From Escherichia coli (GTDB lineage Bacteria > Pseudomonadota > Gammaproteobacteria > Enterobacterales > Enterobacteriaceae), in the NCBI RefSeq assembly GCF_016903815.1, contig NZ_CP069973.1: a DNA stretch of 64,000 nt. One strand, 5' to 3'. Below are positions 13,248 through 22,800 of the stretch, piece after piece; position 1 is the first letter of the stretch, and each line of letters begins with the position of its first letter. The translations under genes were made by a program, and so were the position numbers. Below the pieces are notes generated by a model. It was not told the DNA's origin and did not search any database. It was given only the letters and a program-made list of their open reading frames with translations.

Positions 13248-14093
13248 CTATTTCCCCGCCTCCGGATGCGTATCAAACGCTGCCATCACCAACGCTAAAT
13301 CATCCACTGTAAACCCATGTTTGGCATCATCCACGCCCAGTCCAAACTGCTCCTGCATCACCGCATACAACGACACCACATCCGGTAGATTTAGCTGCTC
13401 CACTGCATGTCCATTTTCATAATGGGTGAAATGAAAATTGGTCAGTGTCAGCTTGCCACCGTCCGGCAAATGGCGGCACATTAACAAATGATGGCGAAAA
13501 TGCGATTGCGGCCAGTGCGCCGACCAGAAATTACCCATCACATAATCGCTTTGTTGCTGCTCGCAGAGATCAAAACGGTACATCGACTGCCAGTGCTGAT
13601 GATGATTAAACTGCAACACCCAATCATCACCCTCCTGCAACAACCGATACTCTCCGTGTGGCGTGGTCTGCACGAGCTCGGGAACTAATCGAATCGGCGC
13701 GGTTAGCGTCTGTCCACCGAAACCGACATCAGCAATCCATTTTTCCCCTTCCACTTCCACCAACAACAAACGATGGGTGCGCGGCGGTAATGCTGGCGGA
13801 TTTGATAACACTACGCGCCCTAACAAGCTGCGAACGTTAAACCCCAGCTCGCGTAACACCCGCTCAAACACGCCATTCTGCTCAAAACAGTAACCACCAC
13901 GACGGGCTGTCACCAGTTTCTCTTCCAGCGATTGATCATCAAGCTGTATTTCCCTCGGCAGCAAAACGTCGAGGTTTTCAAACGGAATGGTGCAATTGTG
14001 TTTCAGGTGCAATGCACGCAGCGTATCTATATTGACCGCAGCAGCTCCCAACCAGTTAATACGGGCAAAATAGTGATTCAGAATGGGCGTCAT
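13248..14093 (-). CDS. nhoA: Arylamine N-acetyltransferase / N-hydroxyarylamine O-acetyltransferase
   Basis: 281 aa; MTPILNHYFARINW...; NAT family. Confidence 0.9.
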   Translation of the reverse strand: MTPILNHYFARINWLGAAAVNIDTLRALHLKHNCTIPFENLDVLLPREIQLDDQSLEEKLVTARRGGYCFEQNGVFERVLRELGFNVRSLLGRVVLSNPPALPPRTHRLLLVEVEGEKWIADVGFGGQTLTAPIRLVPELVQTTPHGEYRLLQEGDDWVLQFNHHQHWQSMYRFDLCEQQQSDYVMGNFWSAHWPQSHFRHHLLMCRHLPDGGKLTLTNFHFTHYENGHAVEQLNLPDVVSLYAVMQEQFGLGVDDAKHGFTVDDLALVMAAFDTHPEAGK

Positions 14094-14267
14094 CAGGCGT
14101 TTCCCTTAGTGGTTTTCTCAACTTATAACCTGGAATAGACGCTGCACCGGCTATTTTGTGCGATCGCGGACATGCATCACGTTCGCAAATCGCCAATCCC
14201 GTTAATTTCGTTACTTATTGCGTTACGAGCTACGCTTTTAAAACACCCTTCATAGCGAGGCGATACC

Positions 14268-14837
14268 GTGAGCCGATTCATCCCTGTCGAATTACACCAT
14301 GCCAGCCGTCTGTTAAATCATGGCCCAACTGTCTTGATCACCAGTTTCGATGAGCAATCCCAGCGGCGTAACATTATGGCAGCCGCCTGGTCAATGCCGG
14401 TGGAGTTTGAACCGCCACGCGTGGCGATTGTGGTAGATAAATCGACATGGACCAGGGAGTTGATTGAACGTAATGGTAAGTTTGGCATCGTTATCCCGGG
14501 TGTTGCAGCAACTAACTGGACGTGGGCGGTGGGAAGTGTGTCGGGGCGTGATGAAGATAAGTTTAATTGCTATGGTATTCCGGTTGTGAAAGGTCCGGTG
14601 CTTGGTTTGCCGCTGGTCGAGGAAAAATGTCTGGCGTGGATGGAGTGTCGCCTGCTACCTGCAACTTCCGCGCAAGAAAAATACGATACGCTATTTGGCG
14701 AAGTGGTATCTGCAGCGGCAGACGCACGAGTATTTGTCGAAGGCCGCTGGCAGTTTGATGATGACAAACTCAATACGTTGCATCATTTAGGTGCTGGCAC
14801 GTTTGTTACCAGCGGCAAGCGTGTTACGGCAGGTTAA
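14268..14837 (+). CDS. yddH: Flavin reductase-like protein
   Basis: 189 aa; recognised as YddH; synteny. Confidence 0.85.
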   Translation: MSRFIPVELHHASRLLNHGPTVLITSFDEQSQRRNIMAAAWSMPVEFEPPRVAIVVDKSTWTRELIERNGKFGIVIPGVAATNWTWAVGSVSGRDEDKFNCYGIPVVKGPVLGLPLVEEKCLAWMECRLLPATSAQEKYDTLFGEVVSAAADARVFVEGRWQFDDDKLNTLHHLGAGTFVTSGKRVTAG

Positions 14838-14840
14838 GCA

Positions 14841-15068
14841 TTACATGCTGTAACCGGGTTTCTTTATCAAAGCCTCCATTTGGGGCGCGATTTCGGCATC
14901 CCAGATAGCTTGCCAAGATTCTGGTTGAATCTGCTGTAGAGAAATGCTTATCGAGCTATCTTTACTGTTCAGATGGCGAATAATAACGTCGGTAATATCT
15001 GCAGCAAGTGCTGCTTTTTGTTGTTCGTCCAGTTCACGCGGAAAACATTTAATGTCTATGTGCGGCAT
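14841..15068 (-). CDS. pptA: Tautomerase PptA (4-oxalocrotonate tautomerase family)
   Basis: Start taken at [13 protein letters not shown] (N-terminal Pro tautomerase hallmark), internal Met of the track ORF 14841..15107. Confidence 0.85.
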
Positions 15069-15373
15069 GATTGTGCTCCTTTTGAAAGATGTCAGTAAAA
15101 TTAACACACGTTGTGAATGTCGTGTGTCCGGTAATGCGTTTTTACGGCAATAATGCCTACTTGAAATTGTACATATTTGTACTACACACTTTTAAATAAA
15201 GCGCCAATGAAAACGTTAACTTGCAGAATATATTCTTCGCCAACATGCCATTAAGAAAACATCAATTTCCCGGCTTGCCAATTTGTTAACGCCCATTATA
15301 GTTATTCTTGCCCTCACTAAAAATTTTCATCCGTAATTACCCCCAATAAAAATCCATTCTGGAGACGCTTAAG

Positions 15374-17350
15374 ATGCAGCTTAATCATATCGTTAAAAGT
15401 CTGCTAATAACGGGATTATTCACCACCAGTTCTTTACCTCTCCTCGCGGCGGAAGCTCCTAAAGACGCCACCGCAGCCACGCAACAAGCAAACAATTTAC
15501 TCTACAACCAGTTGCCGTTTGCCGATAACACTGACTTTACTGATGCCCATAAAGGTTTTATTGCCCCTATCCCTCAAGACGTGATTAAGGGCGAACAAGG
15601 GAATGTTATCTGGGATCCACAACATTACGCTTTTATCAAAGAAGGCGATAAAGCCCCTGATACGGTGAATCCGAGTTTATGGCGTCAGGCGCAACTGATA
15701 AATATCAGCGGGTTATTCGAAGTAACTGAAGGTGTCTATCAGATTCGCAATCTCGATCTATCAAATATGACCATCATTGAAGGCAAAGAGGGTATTACCG
15801 TCGTTGATCCCCTTGTTTCAGCAGAAACAGCCAAAGTGGGTATGGATCTCTATTACAAAAATCGCGGCAAAAAACCGGTAGTGGCGGTTATCTATACACA
15901 CAGTCATGTCGATCACTACGGTGGTGTTCGTGGCGTAATTGATGAAGCTGACGTTAAATCAGGCAAAGTTAAAATCTATGCGCCAGCCGGATTTTTGGAG
16001 GAAGCCGTTTCCGAAAACATCATGGCTGGCAATGTTATGAGCCGACGAGCCAGTTATATGTATGGCAACTTATTGAAACCTGATGTTAAAGGCCAGGTGG
16101 GGGCTGGACTGGGAACGACTACTTCAGCAGGAACAGTCACGTTGATTGCTCCTACTAACTACATCACCAAAACCGGACAAATAGAAACTATTGACGGGTT
16201 GACTTATGATTTCCTGATGGCGCCAGGTTCTGAAGCGCCTTCTGAAATGCTGTGGTTTATTGAAGAAAAGAAACTGATCGAAACCGCTGAAGATGTCACG
16301 CACACCCTTCATAACACCTATTCGCTGCGTGGGGCTAAAATTCGCCAACCGCTGCCGTGGTCAAAATATATTAATGAAGCTCTCAATTTGTGGGGTGATA
16401 AAGCCGAGATTATTCTCGCTCAACATCACTGGCCAACCTGGGGCAACGATAACGTGGTCAAACTGCTTAAAAGCCAGCGTGATTTGTATCGTTACATCAA
16501 TGATCAAACTCTGCGCATGGCTAATCAAGGGATGACCCGTGATGAAATTGCCGCAAACTTTAAACTGCCCTCTTCACTGGCTAACACCTGGGCGAATCGC
16601 GGCTATTACGGTTCGGTAAGTCATGACGTGAAAGCAACTTACGTGCTTTATCTCGGCTGGTTTGATGGTAACCCCGCGACGCTTGATGAACTGCCGCCAG
16701 AAGAAGGCGCAAAAAAATTCGTCGAGTATATGGGCGGTGCTGATGCCATTTTACAGAAAGCCACACAGGATTATGACCAGGGTAATTTCCGCTGGGTTGC
16801 CCAAGTTGTTAGTAAGGTGGTGTTTGCCGATCCAAACAACCAGGCAGCGAGAGATCTGGAAGCTGATGCGCTTGAGCAGTTAGGCTATCAGGCTGAATCT
16901 GGGCCGTGGCGTAATTTCTATCTCACTGGTGCACAGGAATTGCGTAATGGCGTACAAAAATTACCAACACCAAATACTGCCAGCCCAGACACCGTGCGTG
17001 CGATGACGCCGGAGATGTTCTTTGATTATCTTGCCGTCCATATTAATGGTGAGAAAGCGGCAGATGCCAAAACCGTGTTGAATTTCGATTTTGGTGAAGA
17101 TGGCGGCACCTATAAAGTGGAGCTTGAAAATGGTGTTCTCAATCATACCGCTGGTGTAGAGGCTTCGGATGCTGATGCCACTATCACTCTGTCTCGTGAT
17201 GTATTGAACAAAATTGTACTGAAAGAAGAGACGCTGAAAGAAGCCACGGCCAAAGGAGATGTCAAAATTACTGGCAATGAGGAAAAACTCAACGAGCTGT
17301 TAGGTTATATGGATAATTTTGAATTTTGGTTCAATATAGTGACACCATAA
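15374..17350 (+). CDS. Secreted alkyl/aryl-sulfatase, metallo-beta-lactamase fold (SdsA1/YjcS family)
   Basis: 658 aa; signal peptide; THSHVDHYGG zinc motif; GGAGA RBS; not present at this position in K-12 as I recall it. Confidence 0.8.
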   Translation: MQLNHIVKSLLITGLFTTSSLPLLAAEAPKDATAATQQANNLLYNQLPFADNTDFTDAHKGFIAPIPQDVIKGEQGNVIWDPQHYAFIKEGDKAPDTVNPSLWRQAQLINISGLFEVTEGVYQIRNLDLSNMTIIEGKEGITVVDPLVSAETAKVGMDLYYKNRGKKPVVAVIYTHSHVDHYGGVRGVIDEADVKSGKVKIYAPAGFLEEAVSENIMAGNVMSRRASYMYGNLLKPDVKGQVGAGLGTTTSAGTVTLIAPTNYITKTGQIETIDGLTYDFLMAPGSEAPSEMLWFIEEKKLIETAEDVTHTLHNTYSLRGAKIRQPLPWSKYINEALNLWGDKAEIILAQHHWPTWGNDNVVKLLKSQRDLYRYINDQTLRMANQGMTRDEIAANFKLPSSLANTWANRGYYGSVSHDVKATYVLYLGWFDGNPATLDELPPEEGAKKFVEYMGGADAILQKATQDYDQGNFRWVAQVVSKVVFADPNNQAARDLEADALEQLGYQAESGPWRNFYLTGAQELRNGVQKLPTPNTASPDTVRAMTPEMFFDYLAVHINGEKAADAKTVLNFDFGEDGGTYKVELENGVLNHTAGVEASDADATITLSRDVLNKIVLKEETLKEATAKGDVKITGNEEKLNELLGYMDNFEFWFNIVTP

Positions 17351-17360
17351 ATTTACTGCA

Positions 17361-17390
17361 TACCGGGCAGGTATCCTGCCCTTTTTTGGT
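17361..17390 (+). terminator. Rho-independent terminator after the sulfatase gene
   Basis: gggcagg-tatc-ctgccc followed by tttttt. Confidence 0.6.
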
Positions 17391-17396
17391 TAAAAA

Positions 17397-18494
17397 ATGG
17401 CTGAACGAAGAAAAACTCATCACTCATGGAAAACCCGCCGCGATATGGTTATTCGCGGCATGACGATTAGTTTGCCATGGTTTGCTTTTATCAATGTCAG
17501 TTTTGCATTGATAATTTTGCTGCGCCGTGTTCTGTTTAATGACCTTACTCCACCCTGGTTAAATGAAAAAAGCCTTATACATTCTATTGATATATCTGCA
17601 ACGGGTATTCTGCTGATTTGCAGTGGTTTACTACTCATCCCTCGGCAAAAAACATTACCTATCCAGGTGCTATTAGTTGCCCTGAGCCTGCTATGGTCAT
17701 GGTGTAGTTATCACTTTATTGCGTACTGGACGCTGCAGTTTGCTTATCCACTATGTGTATTATTAATGCTTAGTGGCGTTGTCGCACTTTATTTCCATAC
17801 CCCATCATTGCTCGCATTTGTCATTCCCTTATGGTTCACCACTCCAATAGCGAGTCTTATGCTTAATCAACAGATCAATATTCATTTTGCTGTTGTATGG
17901 TGTATTTTTTCACTGGCGCTATATGGTGGGCGACTCATTTTGTTACGTTGGTTTGAAGAAGCATGGATACAAAACAGTTATAACAACCAGTTAATTAATC
18001 GCCTTGATGCATTAGCACATCGTGATCCTTTAACTGGGATAGCAAACCGACGTGCAATGAACAGTATCTTACACGACGCGATGGATAACGGCGGGTCATT
18101 TGCTCTTATTATGCTGGATGTCGATTTTTTTAAACGTTACAACGACACTTACGGGCATCCTGCTGGGGATCGTTGTCTAATACAAGTTGCCGACGCTCTA
18201 CAGCGTTCAACTCGCCAGTCGGAGGATGTTGTTGTCCGTTATGGTGGCGAAGAGTTTGCCATCATACTTTTTAATGCAACATTGCCGGAAGCAGAGACGG
18301 TAGCAGCCAGAGTGAAGCAAGAACTTAAACTGGCAGCTATCCCACATCAGGCATCTGCTGTTAATGCATTTGTTACGGTTAGTCAGGGGATTACCTGTTC
18401 TGCTCCCGCAAAAACGGCTGAACAAATTATTTCAGATGCCGACGCTGCGTTATACCGGGCGAAAGAAAGTGGGCGAAATCGATGGGCTTTATAA
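17397..18494 (+). CDS. Membrane-anchored diguanylate cyclase (multi-TM N-terminal domain + GGDEF)
   Basis: 365-aa ORF; hydrophobic N-terminal ~200 aa; RYGGEEF active-site motif; start codon uncertain (no clear RBS; internal Met candidates at 17445 and 17460); AT-rich. Confidence 0.8.
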   Translation: MAERRKTHHSWKTRRDMVIRGMTISLPWFAFINVSFALIILLRRVLFNDLTPPWLNEKSLIHSIDISATGILLICSGLLLIPRQKTLPIQVLLVALSLLWSWCSYHFIAYWTLQFAYPLCVLLMLSGVVALYFHTPSLLAFVIPLWFTTPIASLMLNQQINIHFAVVWCIFSLALYGGRLILLRWFEEAWIQNSYNNQLINRLDALAHRDPLTGIANRRAMNSILHDAMDNGGSFALIMLDVDFFKRYNDTYGHPAGDRCLIQVADALQRSTRQSEDVVVRYGGEEFAIILFNATLPEAETVAARVKQELKLAAIPHQASAVNAFVTVSQGITCSAPAKTAEQIISDADAALYRAKESGRNRWAL

Positions 18495-18567
18495 GCATTA
18501 GGGGACTGGACAGATTACGTCTCTCCTCGCTTAACAAGGGCTGACGGAGGGTAATAATTGTCTATAG

Positions 18568-19119
18568 CTATCTTCTTAGCGATGTCTTTCTGGTATCACA
18601 TTGGATCGGTGCAATTATTTTTCCTTTAATACCCATTATGTTAAGAAATTCAGAAACAGCTGTAATCTCATTGTTTTTTTCATTCGTCTTGATCTTCCAA
18701 GGAATCTGACTGTGCATTATTGAGAACACACTAATAACGTGAATCGCTCCCTTGCGACGACTCTTGTCATAAGAGTACCGGAGCGTTTTTCCATCAATTG
18801 CAATGACGTCTTTATCATCTGAAGAATGGCAGTCAAGCATCCAGTTAATAAAGCACTCATGAAATTTTTCAGGACTGATACAGGATACAACTCTGGCAAT
18901 GGTATCGTGAACAGGAATACCATTATCAAAATCACCATATTGCTTCAAAAAATCGAGATGTGTTTCCCCAAAATCCTCTATATCTTCCCAGCCTTCTGCA
19001 CCCGAAATAACGGCACAAATAGTCAACAGTAGAATATCCGATAATTTATGCTCCACTTTCCAGGCTTGTCTGTAATCGGGGATAATAGAAATATGTTCCA
19101 TCAATTTTTTAAGTTCCAT
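18568..19119 (-). mobile_element. H-repeat-associated (ISAs1-family) transposase, N-terminal fragment only
   Basis: 183 aa, [50 protein letters not shown]... recognised as H-rpt/YdcC-like; full-length proteins are about twice this size. Confidence 0.75.
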
Positions 19120-19254
19120 TTTGTTCTCCTTAATTATGTAAAGAGTATTTGATCATGTATAAGCAATAAAAAACAGCTTTAGGTAATGAGGAATATCTCA
19201 ATTTTTAAACATAAAATGCGAATTATTTAGTACAAAAAAGCAGCGTTACGTGAT

Positions 19255-19390
19255 CTTTCCCTGCCCTATCGGGTCTGTGTGATATATCGTCCCTGTCCCG
19301 GATTGTAGTACCGGTGCCAGTTGTAGTGCAGTTCGGATTCGTCGTCATACTGCTAGCCCGGATGGCGGAGCAGTTGCTCTAGTCACTCAG
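19255..19390 (-). pseudogene. Vestigial rhs core 3'-end fragment (nonsense + frameshift)
   Basis: Minus-strand translation [34 protein letters not shown] aligns with the main Rhs ...[35 protein letters not shown]; clear nucleotide similarity to 20331..20460. Confidence 0.6.
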
Positions 19391-19424
19391 AATATTGTAA
19401 TAGTAATATAGTGCAGTGCCGGTT

Positions 19425-19823
19425 TCAATATCCTAACGCTGGTCTTTTGCCTGTATTAACTGATTTAGCTGGTTTGCTACATATTAATGCCTTCAGATTT
19501 TCCCTTTCCTTGTCTGTGATACTGTCGCAAACCCTACTAGCCCATTCTACTTCACTCTTCTCCAGGCATTCAATTTTCTTATTGCTCATTGTTCTAATGT
19601 TTGGTGTTGCATCTCCATTTAATAACATCCATGTTTCATTTTTCTTCATAAAACATCTTCCATTATGTTCAAAGATATTAGGTGTGAATATATTATCAGA
19701 ATCCCATGTTACGACTTGCTCGAGGGCTATATTATCTTGATAGTCCATGCCAGAATTATAATAATCACAAGATATAATTATCATGGAAATAATTATCACT
19801 AATATCTTCCCAAGCATTTCCAT
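19425..19823 (-). CDS. Putative Rhs-toxin immunity lipoprotein
   Basis: 132 aa, immediately downstream of and abutting the rhs stop; lipobox IIS-C with Asp at +2; AT-rich; assignment is by position. Confidence 0.55.
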   Translation of the reverse strand: MEMLGKILVIIISMIIISCDYYNSGMDYQDNIALEQVVTWDSDNIFTPNIFEHNGRCFMKKNETWMLLNGDATPNIRTMSNKKIECLEKSEVEWASRVCDSITDKERENLKALICSKPAKSVNTGKRPALGY

Positions 19824-22800
19824 TTACTTTACCTCTTGAAATTTAAATGGGAATCCAGTGAAAGGACCTTTAGGCATAATATATCTTTGATATCCATAAA
19901 ACTCACCGAGCACTTGTAGGCTTATAGGCGCATTTGTATTCATAGAGGGGTTGTTAAACCCGCACGCCTCAAAAATCATGTTCGTTCGGCTAAAACAATT
20001 ATTTGCAACAGGAAGAGGCCCGAGGTTAATAGTTTTTAGTTTTTTATTAAGGTCTATTGCCTTATTCATCATACATTGTTCTTCTTCATCTGTTGTATCT
20101 ATTATCCAAATCCAGGTATCTCTGCGGGGTTGCATCTTTTTAAAATAATCAGAGACAGAGGCGCCCATCTCATCCCCAGTTCCCGAACTCATTAATCCAT
20201 ATCGATTTGCCGCCGCAGCATGCCCAAAAGGATTATCAGGAACGGGGCCATTACCTATTATCATAGTACTAAGGCCTAATGGATCAACGTGTTGCACTGG
20301 ATTCAGCGGATATTGGTACAGATTCCATCCCCCATCCCCCCCTATCGGGTCCTGGATGATATACCGCCCCTGCAACGGATCGTAGTACCGGTGACGGTTA
20401 TAATACAGCCCCGACTCCTCATCGTGTTGCTGCCCTGGCAGACGGTACGGCTGGTGCAGGTGATGCGGGTTTTCCTCATTCAGCAGGTTTCCCCACTCAT
20501 CATACTCCCCGCTCCACGCCGTATTGCCGTCTTCGCTGATGAGCGCCAGCGGCAGGCCCCGGTGGTCGCAGTGGTAAAGATGAACTTTTCGCGCCGGTGT
20601 GTATTCCGGCTCCACCTGTCTGGCCAGTTGCTCTACCGTCAGCCCGCACTGCGCAAGCCACGCCCGGCTTTCACTGCTCACGCGGTCTGCCCGGATTTCT
20701 TCCTCCAGTCTGTCCAGCAGCCGTACCAGTTCAGCCGGGAACACCACGCCGTGCCCGTCCTCGCTCCCTTCCTGCTGCAGCTTCTCCGCCAGGCTGTGGC
20801 GCTGCGTTTTCTCCCGCTCGCCGTTGTCTGTTTCGATGCGGATGAGTGGTGTGAAGCTTCCCGGCTCGTATACCGTCTGGATCCGGCTCTGTTGTGTCTG
20901 TATCGTCGTCAGCCTGTCACCGTCCCAGCCGTACCACGTTACCTCCGGTTTACGCGACAGCGACATCCACCCCGTCAGGTCACGTACCCGCCGCCACACC
21001 CGTTTACCCGTCCGGCGGCCCAGCGGGTCGTAGAGGTAGCGGCTCTCCACCTGCGGCTCGCCATGCTGTATCCGCGTGTAGAACTCTAGGCGGTGCTGGC
21101 TGTCGTAGTGGTAGTGGTGGGTCCGCTCGTCGTCCGTCCGTATCACACCCGCCGGGATGCGGTCCGTCTTCTCCGTCAGCCTGCCGTATTCATCGTGGCG
21201 GTAGACATAGTGCGCATCCTCCGCGATGCGGTTATCCAGCCACACTGTGAGTGTACTGTCCGGGTGCAGCTCCGGGTCCGGCAGCCGGTTGCCCGCCGGG
21301 TCCGTGGCATACGGGATGCGGATGTCCAGGTCCGGTGCGAGGGTGCGCACACTCGCCAGCCTGCCCGTGGCGCTGTAGCCGTATTCCCGCGTCTGTCGCG
21401 GGCCGCTGATGCGCACCAGGTCGCCGTTGTCATTCCACCCGTAGTCACGGTCATACACCAGGCTGTTCAGGTGCTGGCTCTGTAACTGGCCTGCGGGGGT
21501 GTATGTGCTGGTCAGTTCGTATGCGGCATTACTGCCTGCCATGCTGCCGAAGCTGCGCACCGTCTCCCGGTGCAGCCTGTCCCGCGTATACTCGACCCGC
21601 GGCGTCCCGCCCAGCTTCATGCCCGCCAGATAGCCGCTACCATAGGTCAGCCACTCCACCGGCGGCAGGCTGTCCGGCGTGACGCGGTTTGCCAGCCCCT
21701 GCTCGTTGTATGCGTGTTTCGTCTCATGCTGCCACAGCAGTTCCCCCGTCTCCGGGTTCTCCACCGTCTGGCGTTCGCCGGTCAGGCGGCCTTTATCGTC
21801 ATAGCCATAGTGGACGGCAACACGGTGGCCTTCACTGGTATGGCTGAGGGTGGTTAACCACCCGTGCTCATCATACTGCCACTGCTCTGCCGGGTCGCCG
21901 TTCACCGTCCGGTGCGTGATGCGGTCTGCTTCATCGTAGTACCACTGCGTGACCTGCCCCTCATCCTCGCTGCGGATGAGCTGCCCTGTGGCGCTGTACC
22001 GGTAACGCTGTGTCCTGCCATCAAAGCCGCGCTGCTCCGTCAGGCGGTCCAGCACATCGTAGGTAAATTCACTCCGGCTGCCGTTCTCGTTGGTCAGCGT
22101 GGTGACACGTCCTGCCGCGTCATACTCCATACTGCGCGTCAGCCCGCCCTGCGTGGTGCTGACCGCTTTTCCCCACGCATCGTACTGTGTCTCGCTCCGG
22201 TTGCCGTCCGGGGTGATAACGGCAGTCAGGTCGCCTGCGGCGTTGTACTCATACTGCGTTTCACGGCCCTGTGCGTCTTTCACCGAGGTTAACCGGCCAC
22301 GGTTGTCATAGCGGCGGTAACGGCTGATACCTTCCTCGCGGTGGACCGCCGTCATCTGACCAAAGCGGTCGTATTCATAGCGGGTCTGGTAGCCCGAGCA
22401 GTCGGTGAACGCCAGCAACTGCCCGTAGCGGCTCCAGGTCATCTGCCGGGTGCTGCCCGTCGCATCCGTTGTCGTCGCCGGTAACTCACTGTACGCGTCA
22501 TCGTAGCGGTAGCGTACTGTCTCCCCGCTGCGCGATGTCTCCGTTACCAGCCTGCCCGGTTCATCATATGCCCGGCGGCTCTCCAGCCCGTCCGGGGACA
22601 CCACTGCCGTCACCTGGTTCCCGTCGTTATAGTAAAATTTCGTCTCCCGCCCGTCCGGTGTGGTGATGTCCGTGATATCGCCTGACACCACATTCAGACC
22701 GTACTCTGTCCGCCGTCCCGCCGCGTCCGTCTGCGCCGTAAGCCTTCCTGCCGCGTCATACCCACTGTGCGTGGCGCTGCCGTCCGCCAGTTCTTTTTTC

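Follow-up and report, generated by a model that had tools for sequence, protein, structure and literature searches.

In Escherichia coli K-12 a full-length H-repeat element of the ISAs1 family, ydcC (b1460), lies 99 bp from the tautomerase gene pptA (b1461). In the E. coli DNA studied here, a stretch of 64,000 nucleotides from contig NZ_CP069973.1 of RefSeq assembly GCF_016903815.1 (the window), the same interval holds two plus-strand genes that are both missing from K-12, one for an alkylsulfatase and one for a membrane-bound diguanylate cyclase. This raises the question of whether the block was gained by this strain or lost by K-12, and whether the two proteins work together. The explanation that best fits the data, and that we regard as quite probable when taken as a whole, is an old resident pair, lost elsewhere by deletions adjacent to ISAs1 elements, which encodes a periplasmic alkylsulfatase and a membrane cyclase expressed at a low level. 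It draws on observed domain identities, conserved catalytic motifs, purifying selection, distribution, synteny and deletion breakpoints. Both proteins belong to known families, and annotations of the pair already exist in hundreds of genomes.

Layout and history of the locus

The gene order in the window is narV-yddE-nhoA-yddH-pptA, followed by the two genes of the block, a truncated ISAs1 (H-repeat) transposase gene and an Rhs/VgrG cluster. The features of the locus, with the evidence for each (E, expectation value; dN/dS, ratio of nonsynonymous to synonymous substitution rates; aa, amino acids), are as follows.

14841-15068, minus strand: pptA, tautomerase (NCBIfam PptA equivalog, E = 1.8e-46; so annotated by RefSeq at the identical locus)
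15069-15373, no strand: AT-rich intergenic region between pptA and the sulfatase gene, 305 bp, G+C content (GC) 0.364 (composition, promoter scan, blastn)
15374-17350, plus strand: alkylsulfatase gene, 658 aa (Pfam, PDB sequence matches, dN/dS)
17365-17387, plus strand: hairpin and T6 between sulfatase and cyclase, resembling a terminator or attenuator (sequence reading)
17397-18494, plus strand: MASE5-GGDEF cyclase gene, 365 aa (Pfam, alignments, AlphaFold model, dN/dS)
18569-19263, minus strand: truncated ISAs1 / H-repeat (NCBIfam ISAs1 transposase, E = 1.3e-49; blastn to K-12 ydcC; 'frameshifted; incomplete' in RefSeq)

The left anchor of the block is pptA, which is transcribed away from the sulfatase gene. 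The right border is the ISAs1 element, of which only the first ~695 bp are present, with the transposase open reading frame cut at 183 aa; at this junction the cyclase gene is whole and the insertion sequence (IS) is the truncated partner. A sequence-only reading that preceded our analysis had described the two genes as a signal-peptide alkylsulfatase of the metallo-β-lactamase (MBL) fold and a GGDEF gene with multiple transmembrane helices, not known to it at this position in K-12. Both genes are real and intact; Pfam and the HxHxDH and GGEEF motifs bear out the description, and the K-12 junction bears out the absence. The same reading had named universal conservation of the block as core genome at this site as a ground for refutation. 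In a megablast search it was found (at least 80% of its length, 97.6-100% identity) in 438 of 5426 complete E. coli genomes, or ~8%, and it is therefore accessory. In the same set, the cyclase gene is present in 443 genomes and the K-12-type ydcC/pptA junction in 2365; in most genomes no second copy of the block was found. The carriers include clinical isolates, for example the urosepsis strain MS14384 (sequence type ST963).

In E. coli strains without the block, blastn against the window reveals staggered breakpoints, each of them at an ISAs1 copy.

K-12: homology to the window stops at 15157, so that only part of the intergenic region remains
F9792: homology stops at 15301, but an isolated 67-bp fragment from the 3' end of the sulfatase gene (17229-17295) is also present
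IMT16316: homology stops at 15443, with 70 bp from the start of the sulfatase gene remaining
L1PEag1: homology ends at 18391, with the cyclase cut to 328 aa

The sulfatase remnants in block-less strains are direct evidence of loss. Related genomes hold the genes in the same place. The order nhoA-yddH-pptA-sulfatase-cyclase recurs on the contig of a relative whose cyclase is 93% identical, and the tandem is kept on another with an 81%-identical cyclase. Clusters whose proteins are 77-79% identical to the cyclase bear the species names E. marmotae and E. ruysiae, and the cluster of the sulfatase takes in E. albertii, E. whittamii, Citrobacter sedlakii and C. amalonaticus. Citrobacter koseri has the order narV-nhoA-yddH-cyclase-yncG, without the sulfatase, and C. 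portucalensis has yddH-sulfatase-pptA, without the cyclase. Because relatives share the gene order, Citrobacter has the genes at this locus, and the remnants end at ISAs1 breakpoints, we read the difference as a deletion in K-12 and not an insertion here. The two genes would be long-standing residents of the narZ-yddH-pptA / yncG region in Escherichia and Citrobacter, and K-12 and most other E. coli would have lost the pair by deletions next to ISAs1 (H-repeat) elements that were brought in with the neighbouring Rhs/VgrG cluster.

Several observations count against this account. The sequence-only reading had called the cyclase gene AT-rich, and a check by GC and codon position agrees: its GC is 0.434 and its G+C content at third codon positions (GC3) is 0.363, against a GC3 of 0.50-0.66 in the flanking genes narV, yddE, nhoA and yddH. 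The sulfatase gene is somewhat AT-rich as well (GC 0.459, GC3 0.436), so that in Escherichia the pair as a whole (GC3 0.36-0.44) is well below its flanks. The low GC3 is a trait of Escherichia alone: the genes of Enterobacter, Lelliottia, Salmonella and C. koseri have the composition of their flanks. Synonymous divergence (dS) between pairs of E. coli carriers is 0.03-0.18 in the block as against 0.21-0.51 in the adjacent yddH and nhoA; over the three comparison loci L099, L087 and L002, these flanking core genes (13248-14837) are unusually diverged, with dS values of 0.17-0.51. Of the 443 carriers, 436 have cyclase genes with at least 99% identity. A lateral (recombinational) spread of one haplotype within E. 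coli is possible; alternatively, the dS contrast could stem from flanks that are unusually diverse next to the Rhs cluster. RefSeq prefers a shorter start of the cyclase than the one adopted here. The multi-omics supplements for MS14384 have no entry for EW037_RS12800 or EW037_RS12805.

Composition, near-identity of the cyclase alleles and a dS below that of the flanks would also suit a recently acquired genomic island, in which an AT-rich pair entered the lineage of this strain horizontally, beside mobile DNA. An ISAs1 fragment and Rhs/VgrG genes do lie on one side, and in other genera the sulfatase is IS-flanked or carried on plasmids. We nevertheless consider such an acquisition very unlikely, given that close relatives share the gene order, that Citrobacter has the genes at the same locus and that block-less strains retain pieces from both ends of the sulfatase gene (70 bp of the 5' end, 67 bp of the 3' end). 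There is no integrase, tRNA site or direct repeats, the IS is found on one side only, and the spread of identities among E. coli carriers, down to 97.6%, is as expected for old alleles. Despite its atypical composition, the block does not qualify as a genomic island, the pair or its members being found at the same locus in relatives and in Citrobacter. An extra or foreign block in this strain, as the sequence-only reading had implied, is not what synteny, sulfatase remnants and ISAs1 breakpoints point to; they favour the old resident pair. If this is correct, the locus clearly illustrates how a seeming 'island' can be an ancestral segment that other strains have lost by IS-associated deletions.

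The alkylsulfatase

The sulfatase matches three Pfam families, Lactamase_B (PF00753, E = 3.9e-19), Alkyl_sulf_dimr (PF14863, E = 1.3e-62) and Alkyl_sulf_C (PF14864, E = 1.4e-44), and an SCP2-type family (PF02036, E = 2.8e-06) also matches its C-terminus. The zinc-binding motif HxHxDH is present at residues 176-181 as H176-S-H-V-D-H181. By direct reading, the N-terminus (MQLNHIVKSLLITGLFTTSSLPLLAAEA) resembles a Sec signal peptide, with a basic residue, a hydrophobic run and the sequence LLA-AEA, and in a PDB sequence search the crystallised homologues align only from residue 26-29 on. The matches in that search are, in order, the MBL-fold protein 7TL5, SdsAP (4NUR), YjcS (4PDX), Pisa1 and SdsA1, with full-length bit scores of 1188 for 7TL5, 1033 for SdsAP and 697 for YjcS. 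A dN/dS of 0.04-0.12 indicates purifying selection.

The third class of bacterial sulfatases comprises proteins with signal peptides that are active on sodium dodecyl sulfate (SDS) or other alkyl sulfate esters (PMC6107682). The sulfatase of the window would be a Sec-exported, zinc-dependent group-III alkylsulfatase of the SdsAP/SdsA1/YjcS family. Judging by the family to which it belongs, its substrates are most likely long-chain primary alkyl sulfate esters (SDS-like), which it would split into alcohol and sulfate in the periplasm.

The sulfatases of Citrobacter, Serratia, Rahnella, Mixta and Pantoea, which represent three families, are all 83-87% identical to the E. coli copy, and some homologues are flanked by IS3 elements or located on megaplasmids. 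So flat a level of identity suggests either lateral spread or unusually strong constraint.

The diguanylate cyclase

The second protein consists of a MASE5 domain (PF17178, E = 1.1e-43), in which residues 25-206 align with profile positions 2-192 of 192, and a GGDEF domain (PF00990, E = 1.4e-48). The active site reads GGEEF (residues 283-287). Asp241, Asn249, Asp258, Lys356 and Arg360 are invariant in 41 homologues and correspond to the GTP- and metal-binding residues of other cyclases; in our reading of the alignment, the key residues are spaced as in PleD. A canonical RxxD inhibitory site five residues before GGEEF is absent from the sequence R273-Q-S-E-D277-VVVRY-GGEEF: the aspartate, Asp277, is in register and the arginine is one position too far away. 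The resulting R-x-x-x-D pattern is kept across the homologues. Proteins of the same domain order and length in Enterobacter, Salmonella, Hafnia and Pantoea are 48-55% identical over the full length, and the dN/dS of the cyclase gene, 0.19-0.21, indicates purifying selection.

The AlphaFold model of the cyclase (mean pLDDT, the predicted local distance difference test score, of 86) contains six transmembrane helices joined by very short loops, with almost no periplasmic loops, and a continuous stalk helix that runs from residue 162 to residue 207 into the catalytic domain. The positively charged N-terminal tail and a short IPRQK loop fit a topology with both termini inside. In a Foldseek search the best match to the full-length model was ImcA (8WCN; E = 1.6e-14, TM score 0.49, 24% identity). 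The protein would be a dimeric diguanylate cyclase of the inner membrane, in which a long helix connects a six-helix, nearly loop-free MASE5 domain to the GGEEF domain. With its catalytic motifs intact, it should be able to synthesise cyclic di-GMP (c-di-GMP), and should do so when a signal perceived inside the membrane makes the MASE5 domain change state.

The repertoire of c-di-GMP enzymes varies from one E. coli strain to another, and such differences shape biofilm behaviour. The cyclase of the window is one of the few that are not found in K-12, and is therefore missing from nearly all experimental work.

The intergenic gap and expression of the cyclase

As to a possible single operon, the two genes are on the same strand and exactly 46 bp apart (17351-17396), but the gap contains a strong hairpin, GGGCAGG-TAT-CCTGCCC (7-bp stem with six G-C pairs), followed by TTTTTT, at 17365-17387. 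The sequence-only reading had placed a terminator and 46 bp between the genes; both are there, the hairpin lying inside the 46 bp and not in addition to it. In the tandem pairs of Enterobacter and Lelliottia, a G+C-rich hairpin of different sequence is kept in the same position, directly after the sulfatase stop codon. An Rfam scan of 14700-19900 gave no match at E values up to 1.

The best sigma-70-like site in the region between the sulfatase gene and pptA is TTGCCA-16-TATAGT (15275-15302), and a ribosome-binding site, GGAG, is found in the same region, with a predicted anti-Shine-Dalgarno pairing energy of -6.4 kcal/mol, the same value as for yddH. For the cyclase the corresponding energies at the three candidate ATG codons, 17397, 17445 and 17460, are -2.2, -3.3 and -2.2 kcal/mol; the earlier remark that this gene has no obvious ribosome-binding site stands. 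RefSeq places the start at the second ATG, 17445, giving a protein of 349 aa. We favour the first ATG, 17397, with moderate confidence, because the 16 codons upstream of 17445 stay open, comparison with two close relatives gives them dN/dS values of 0.09 and 0.34, and Trp13 and the arginine-rich or basic residues before Met17 are kept in relatives of the cyclase that are only 48-64% identical.

No sigma-70-like site was found between 16210 and 17397. The weak translation start, the lack of such a site in this interval and the terminator-like hairpin upstream together suggest that expression of the cyclase is probably low. It may be transcribed by read-through of the hairpin after the sulfatase gene, with only some transcripts passing, in which case the cyclase would be made in small amounts.

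Association of the two genes in other genera

A sulfatase of the same subfamily (84-87% identical in the other genera) and a MASE5 cyclase are found together in four arrangements in Enterobacterales, the survey of other genera having started from their MASE5 cyclases. Tandem pairs occur next to pptA in Escherichia and, with the sulfatase directly upstream, between tynA and feaB in Enterobacter hormaechei, Enterobacter asburiae and Lelliottia jeotgali. In Salmonella the genes are divergent and directly adjacent, both on the chromosome of S. enterica subsp. indica and on a 263-kb replicon of S. Sandiego, where they lie among phage-like genes. On the megaplasmids of Pantoea agglomerans they are convergent and 2.8 kb apart. 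In our reading, four arrangements in four settings exceed chance for a gene of which a genome has one or two copies. The survey is a small sample, in which the lineages are few and partly non-independent; a scan of species representatives contained at least about nine true MASE5 loci, with none from Escherichia among the matches listed.

Each gene is also found without the other. The cyclase occurs without the sulfatase in C. koseri, Enterobacter cloacae, an Enterobacter metagenome-assembled genome, Hafnia, Mangrovibacter and Rahnella bruchi, and at one tynA-feaB locus with the cyclase a ParE toxin pair takes the place of the sulfatase. The sulfatase occurs without the cyclase in C. portucalensis, in Mixta (with a FadL-like gene) and in Klebsiella aerogenes (flanked by IS3). 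The sequence-only reading had suggested a sensory link between the two proteins; recurrent proximity (adjacent or less than 3 kb apart) in four arrangements speaks for such a link, and the separate occurrence of each gene speaks against it. We treat a functional link as a plausible hypothesis, not as a result, since either gene can stand alone and the sample is small, with lineages that are partly non-independent.

If the proteins are coupled, the simplest route would be through the membrane, with the amphiphilic substrate of the sulfatase or its alcohol product entering the bilayer and being read by MASE5. As a functional module, the pair would convert the arrival of alkyl sulfates, or of the long-chain alcohol released from them, in the inner membrane into c-di-GMP and a protected biofilm state. 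A MASE5 domain nearly devoid of periplasmic loops would suit a membrane-borne signal, and there is a precedent for SDS acting through c-di-GMP (PMC4768041). The different surroundings of the four arrangements and the kept position of the hairpin in the tandem forms also favour a module, as does Serratia fonticola, in which a cyclase of a different type (GAF-GGDEF; 2659-3630 of the locus) lies directly upstream of a sulfatase of the same subfamily. FadL-like neighbours of the sulfatase in Mixta, Buttiauxella and Pantoea fit hydrophobic, long-chain substrates. On the other hand, the argument comes from genome comparison over few lineages, not all independent; several genera have one gene without the other, once with a ParE pair instead of the sulfatase; and in E. 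coli a terminator separates the two. On balance we hold a module of this kind to be somewhat unlikely. The more specific proposal of a conserved alkyl-sulfate-sensing module of Enterobacterales, in which sulfated amphiphiles (candidates are detergents and host or plant sulfated lipids and alcohols) yield a membrane-soluble alcohol that acts through MASE5 on c-di-GMP and biofilm, is in our view clearly unlikely.

The two genes may instead be neighbours by history, unrelated accessory genes in a variable, terminus-proximal region, with a cyclase signal unconnected with sulfate esters. We hold this with slightly less than even confidence. It would explain why each gene stands alone in several genera, why an intrinsic terminator separates them, and why their rates of evolution differ so much (identity between genera is 84-87%, ~86% on the whole, for the sulfatase, as against 48-52%, ~50%, for the cyclase). 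The six-helix MASE5 domain might then chiefly be a surface for dimerisation or for docking of a partner, as in ImcA, the best structural match, whose transmembrane helices are needed for partner binding and activity (PMC10904736). However, a match at 24% identity says little about function, and chance would hardly produce adjacency repeatedly, in four orientations and settings that include extrachromosomal replicons.

The recurrent placement of MASE5 cyclases near the sulfatase is a testable lead to the MASE5 signal. If the pair does form an alkyl-sulfate module, it would provide the first signal for a MASE5 domain, and the loss in K-12 and most E. coli would be the loss of a sensory pathway.

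Some of the other genera have additional genes at these loci. In Pantoea the sulfatase gene is the first of an operon that also encodes a secreted protein of 263 aa, a member of the YicS family and a FadL-like channel of the outer membrane; the arrangement in Buttiauxella is similar and includes a MASE5 fragment. The secreted protein has no Pfam match and is 88% identical between Pantoea and Buttiauxella (7278-8069 of our locus L109 and 6032-6823 of L105). Such FadL-like channels are found with the sulfatase in Pantoea, Buttiauxella and Mixta, and the channel and the 263-aa protein may form an alkyl sulfate uptake system without a counterpart in Escherichia. A protein of 263 aa is also encoded downstream of the block in some E. 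coli; it is unrelated to the secreted protein, and the equal length is coincidental. In S. Sandiego (CP074266.1, 37000-50000) the divergent pair lies among phage-like antitermination and replication genes, and on the chromosome of subsp. indica it adjoins ttcA, which we take to be a prophage integration site in E. coli. The Salmonella pair may travel with prophages, as the cyclase DgcX does (see below).

Genes next to the block

Beyond the ISAs1 remnant, the segment 19425-24029 (minus strand) encodes an Rhs core protein of 1401 aa (GC 0.61), which ends in a low-GC C-terminal tip, and, directly after the tip, a very AT-rich open reading frame of 132 aa (GC 0.34). This matches the usual layout of toxin tip and immunity gene. 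In RefSeq, a 108-bp orphan RHS fragment separates the Rhs gene from the ISAs1 remnant, and a gene for VgrG is annotated upstream of Rhs.

Comparison with known systems

The MASE5 domain was reportedly defined in the nomenclature paper of Hengge et al. (2016), and we know of no signal for any MASE5 protein. The E. coli pangenome survey of Povolotsky and Hengge (2016) is said to have named a second non-K-12 membrane cyclase DgcY; the cyclase of the window is probably this protein. Among other MASE5-GGDEF proteins, one in Enterobacter ludwigii is simply listed in a genome survey (PMC7232144), and the promoter of DGC3134 from Pantoea sp. YR343 is active in biofilm and on roots (PMC8294551).

Like the cyclase of the window, DgcX of enteroaggregative E. 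coli and O104:H4 is an extra membrane-bound GGDEF cyclase absent from K-12. DgcX has an eight-helix N-terminal domain of ~270 aa, similar to YcdT and YeaI, and a canonical RxxD site, and its gene sits beside lambdoid prophages at attB (PMC4287979). The six-helix MASE5 domain, the R-x-x-x-D pattern and the pptA neighbour found here led us to reject an identity with DgcX.

A literature search that joined sulfatase, diguanylate cyclase, SDS and SiaD returned mainly work on SDS and SiaD in Pseudomonas, and nothing on this gene pair. P. aeruginosa grown with SDS aggregates, for which the cyclase SiaD is required (PMC4768041). The SiaA/SiaD system therefore resembles the proposed module in that a detergent of the alkyl sulfate type brings about c-di-GMP formation and aggregation by way of a cyclase, a functional analogy for the module only: SiaD is soluble, is governed by a phosphatase/kinase partner switch and is not encoded beside a sulfatase. 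The cyclase of the window scores 154 bits against the NCBIfam SiaD model, whose cut-off is 290, and the resemblance is confined to the GGDEF domain. ImcA of P. aeruginosa (PA1851; cryo-EM structure 8WCN) is closer in build, with six transmembrane helices followed by a GGDEF domain. It is held inactive by the iron-sensing protein IsmP, which requires the transmembrane regions of both proteins (PMC10904736); unlike ImcA, the cyclase of the window has no IsmP-type partner encoded at its locus.

With the group-III alkylsulfatases SdsAP of Pseudomonas sp. S9 (4NUR), SdsA1 of P. aeruginosa (2CFU), YjcS (4PDX), Pisa1 (2YHE) and 7TL5 the sulfatase of the window shares the succession of MBL, dimerisation and SCP2-like domains, the HxHxDH motif, the signal peptide and a length of ~658 aa. 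It is a second E. coli paralogue of this group, nearer to Pseudomonas SdsAP than to K-12 YjcS, which is encoded elsewhere on the chromosome.

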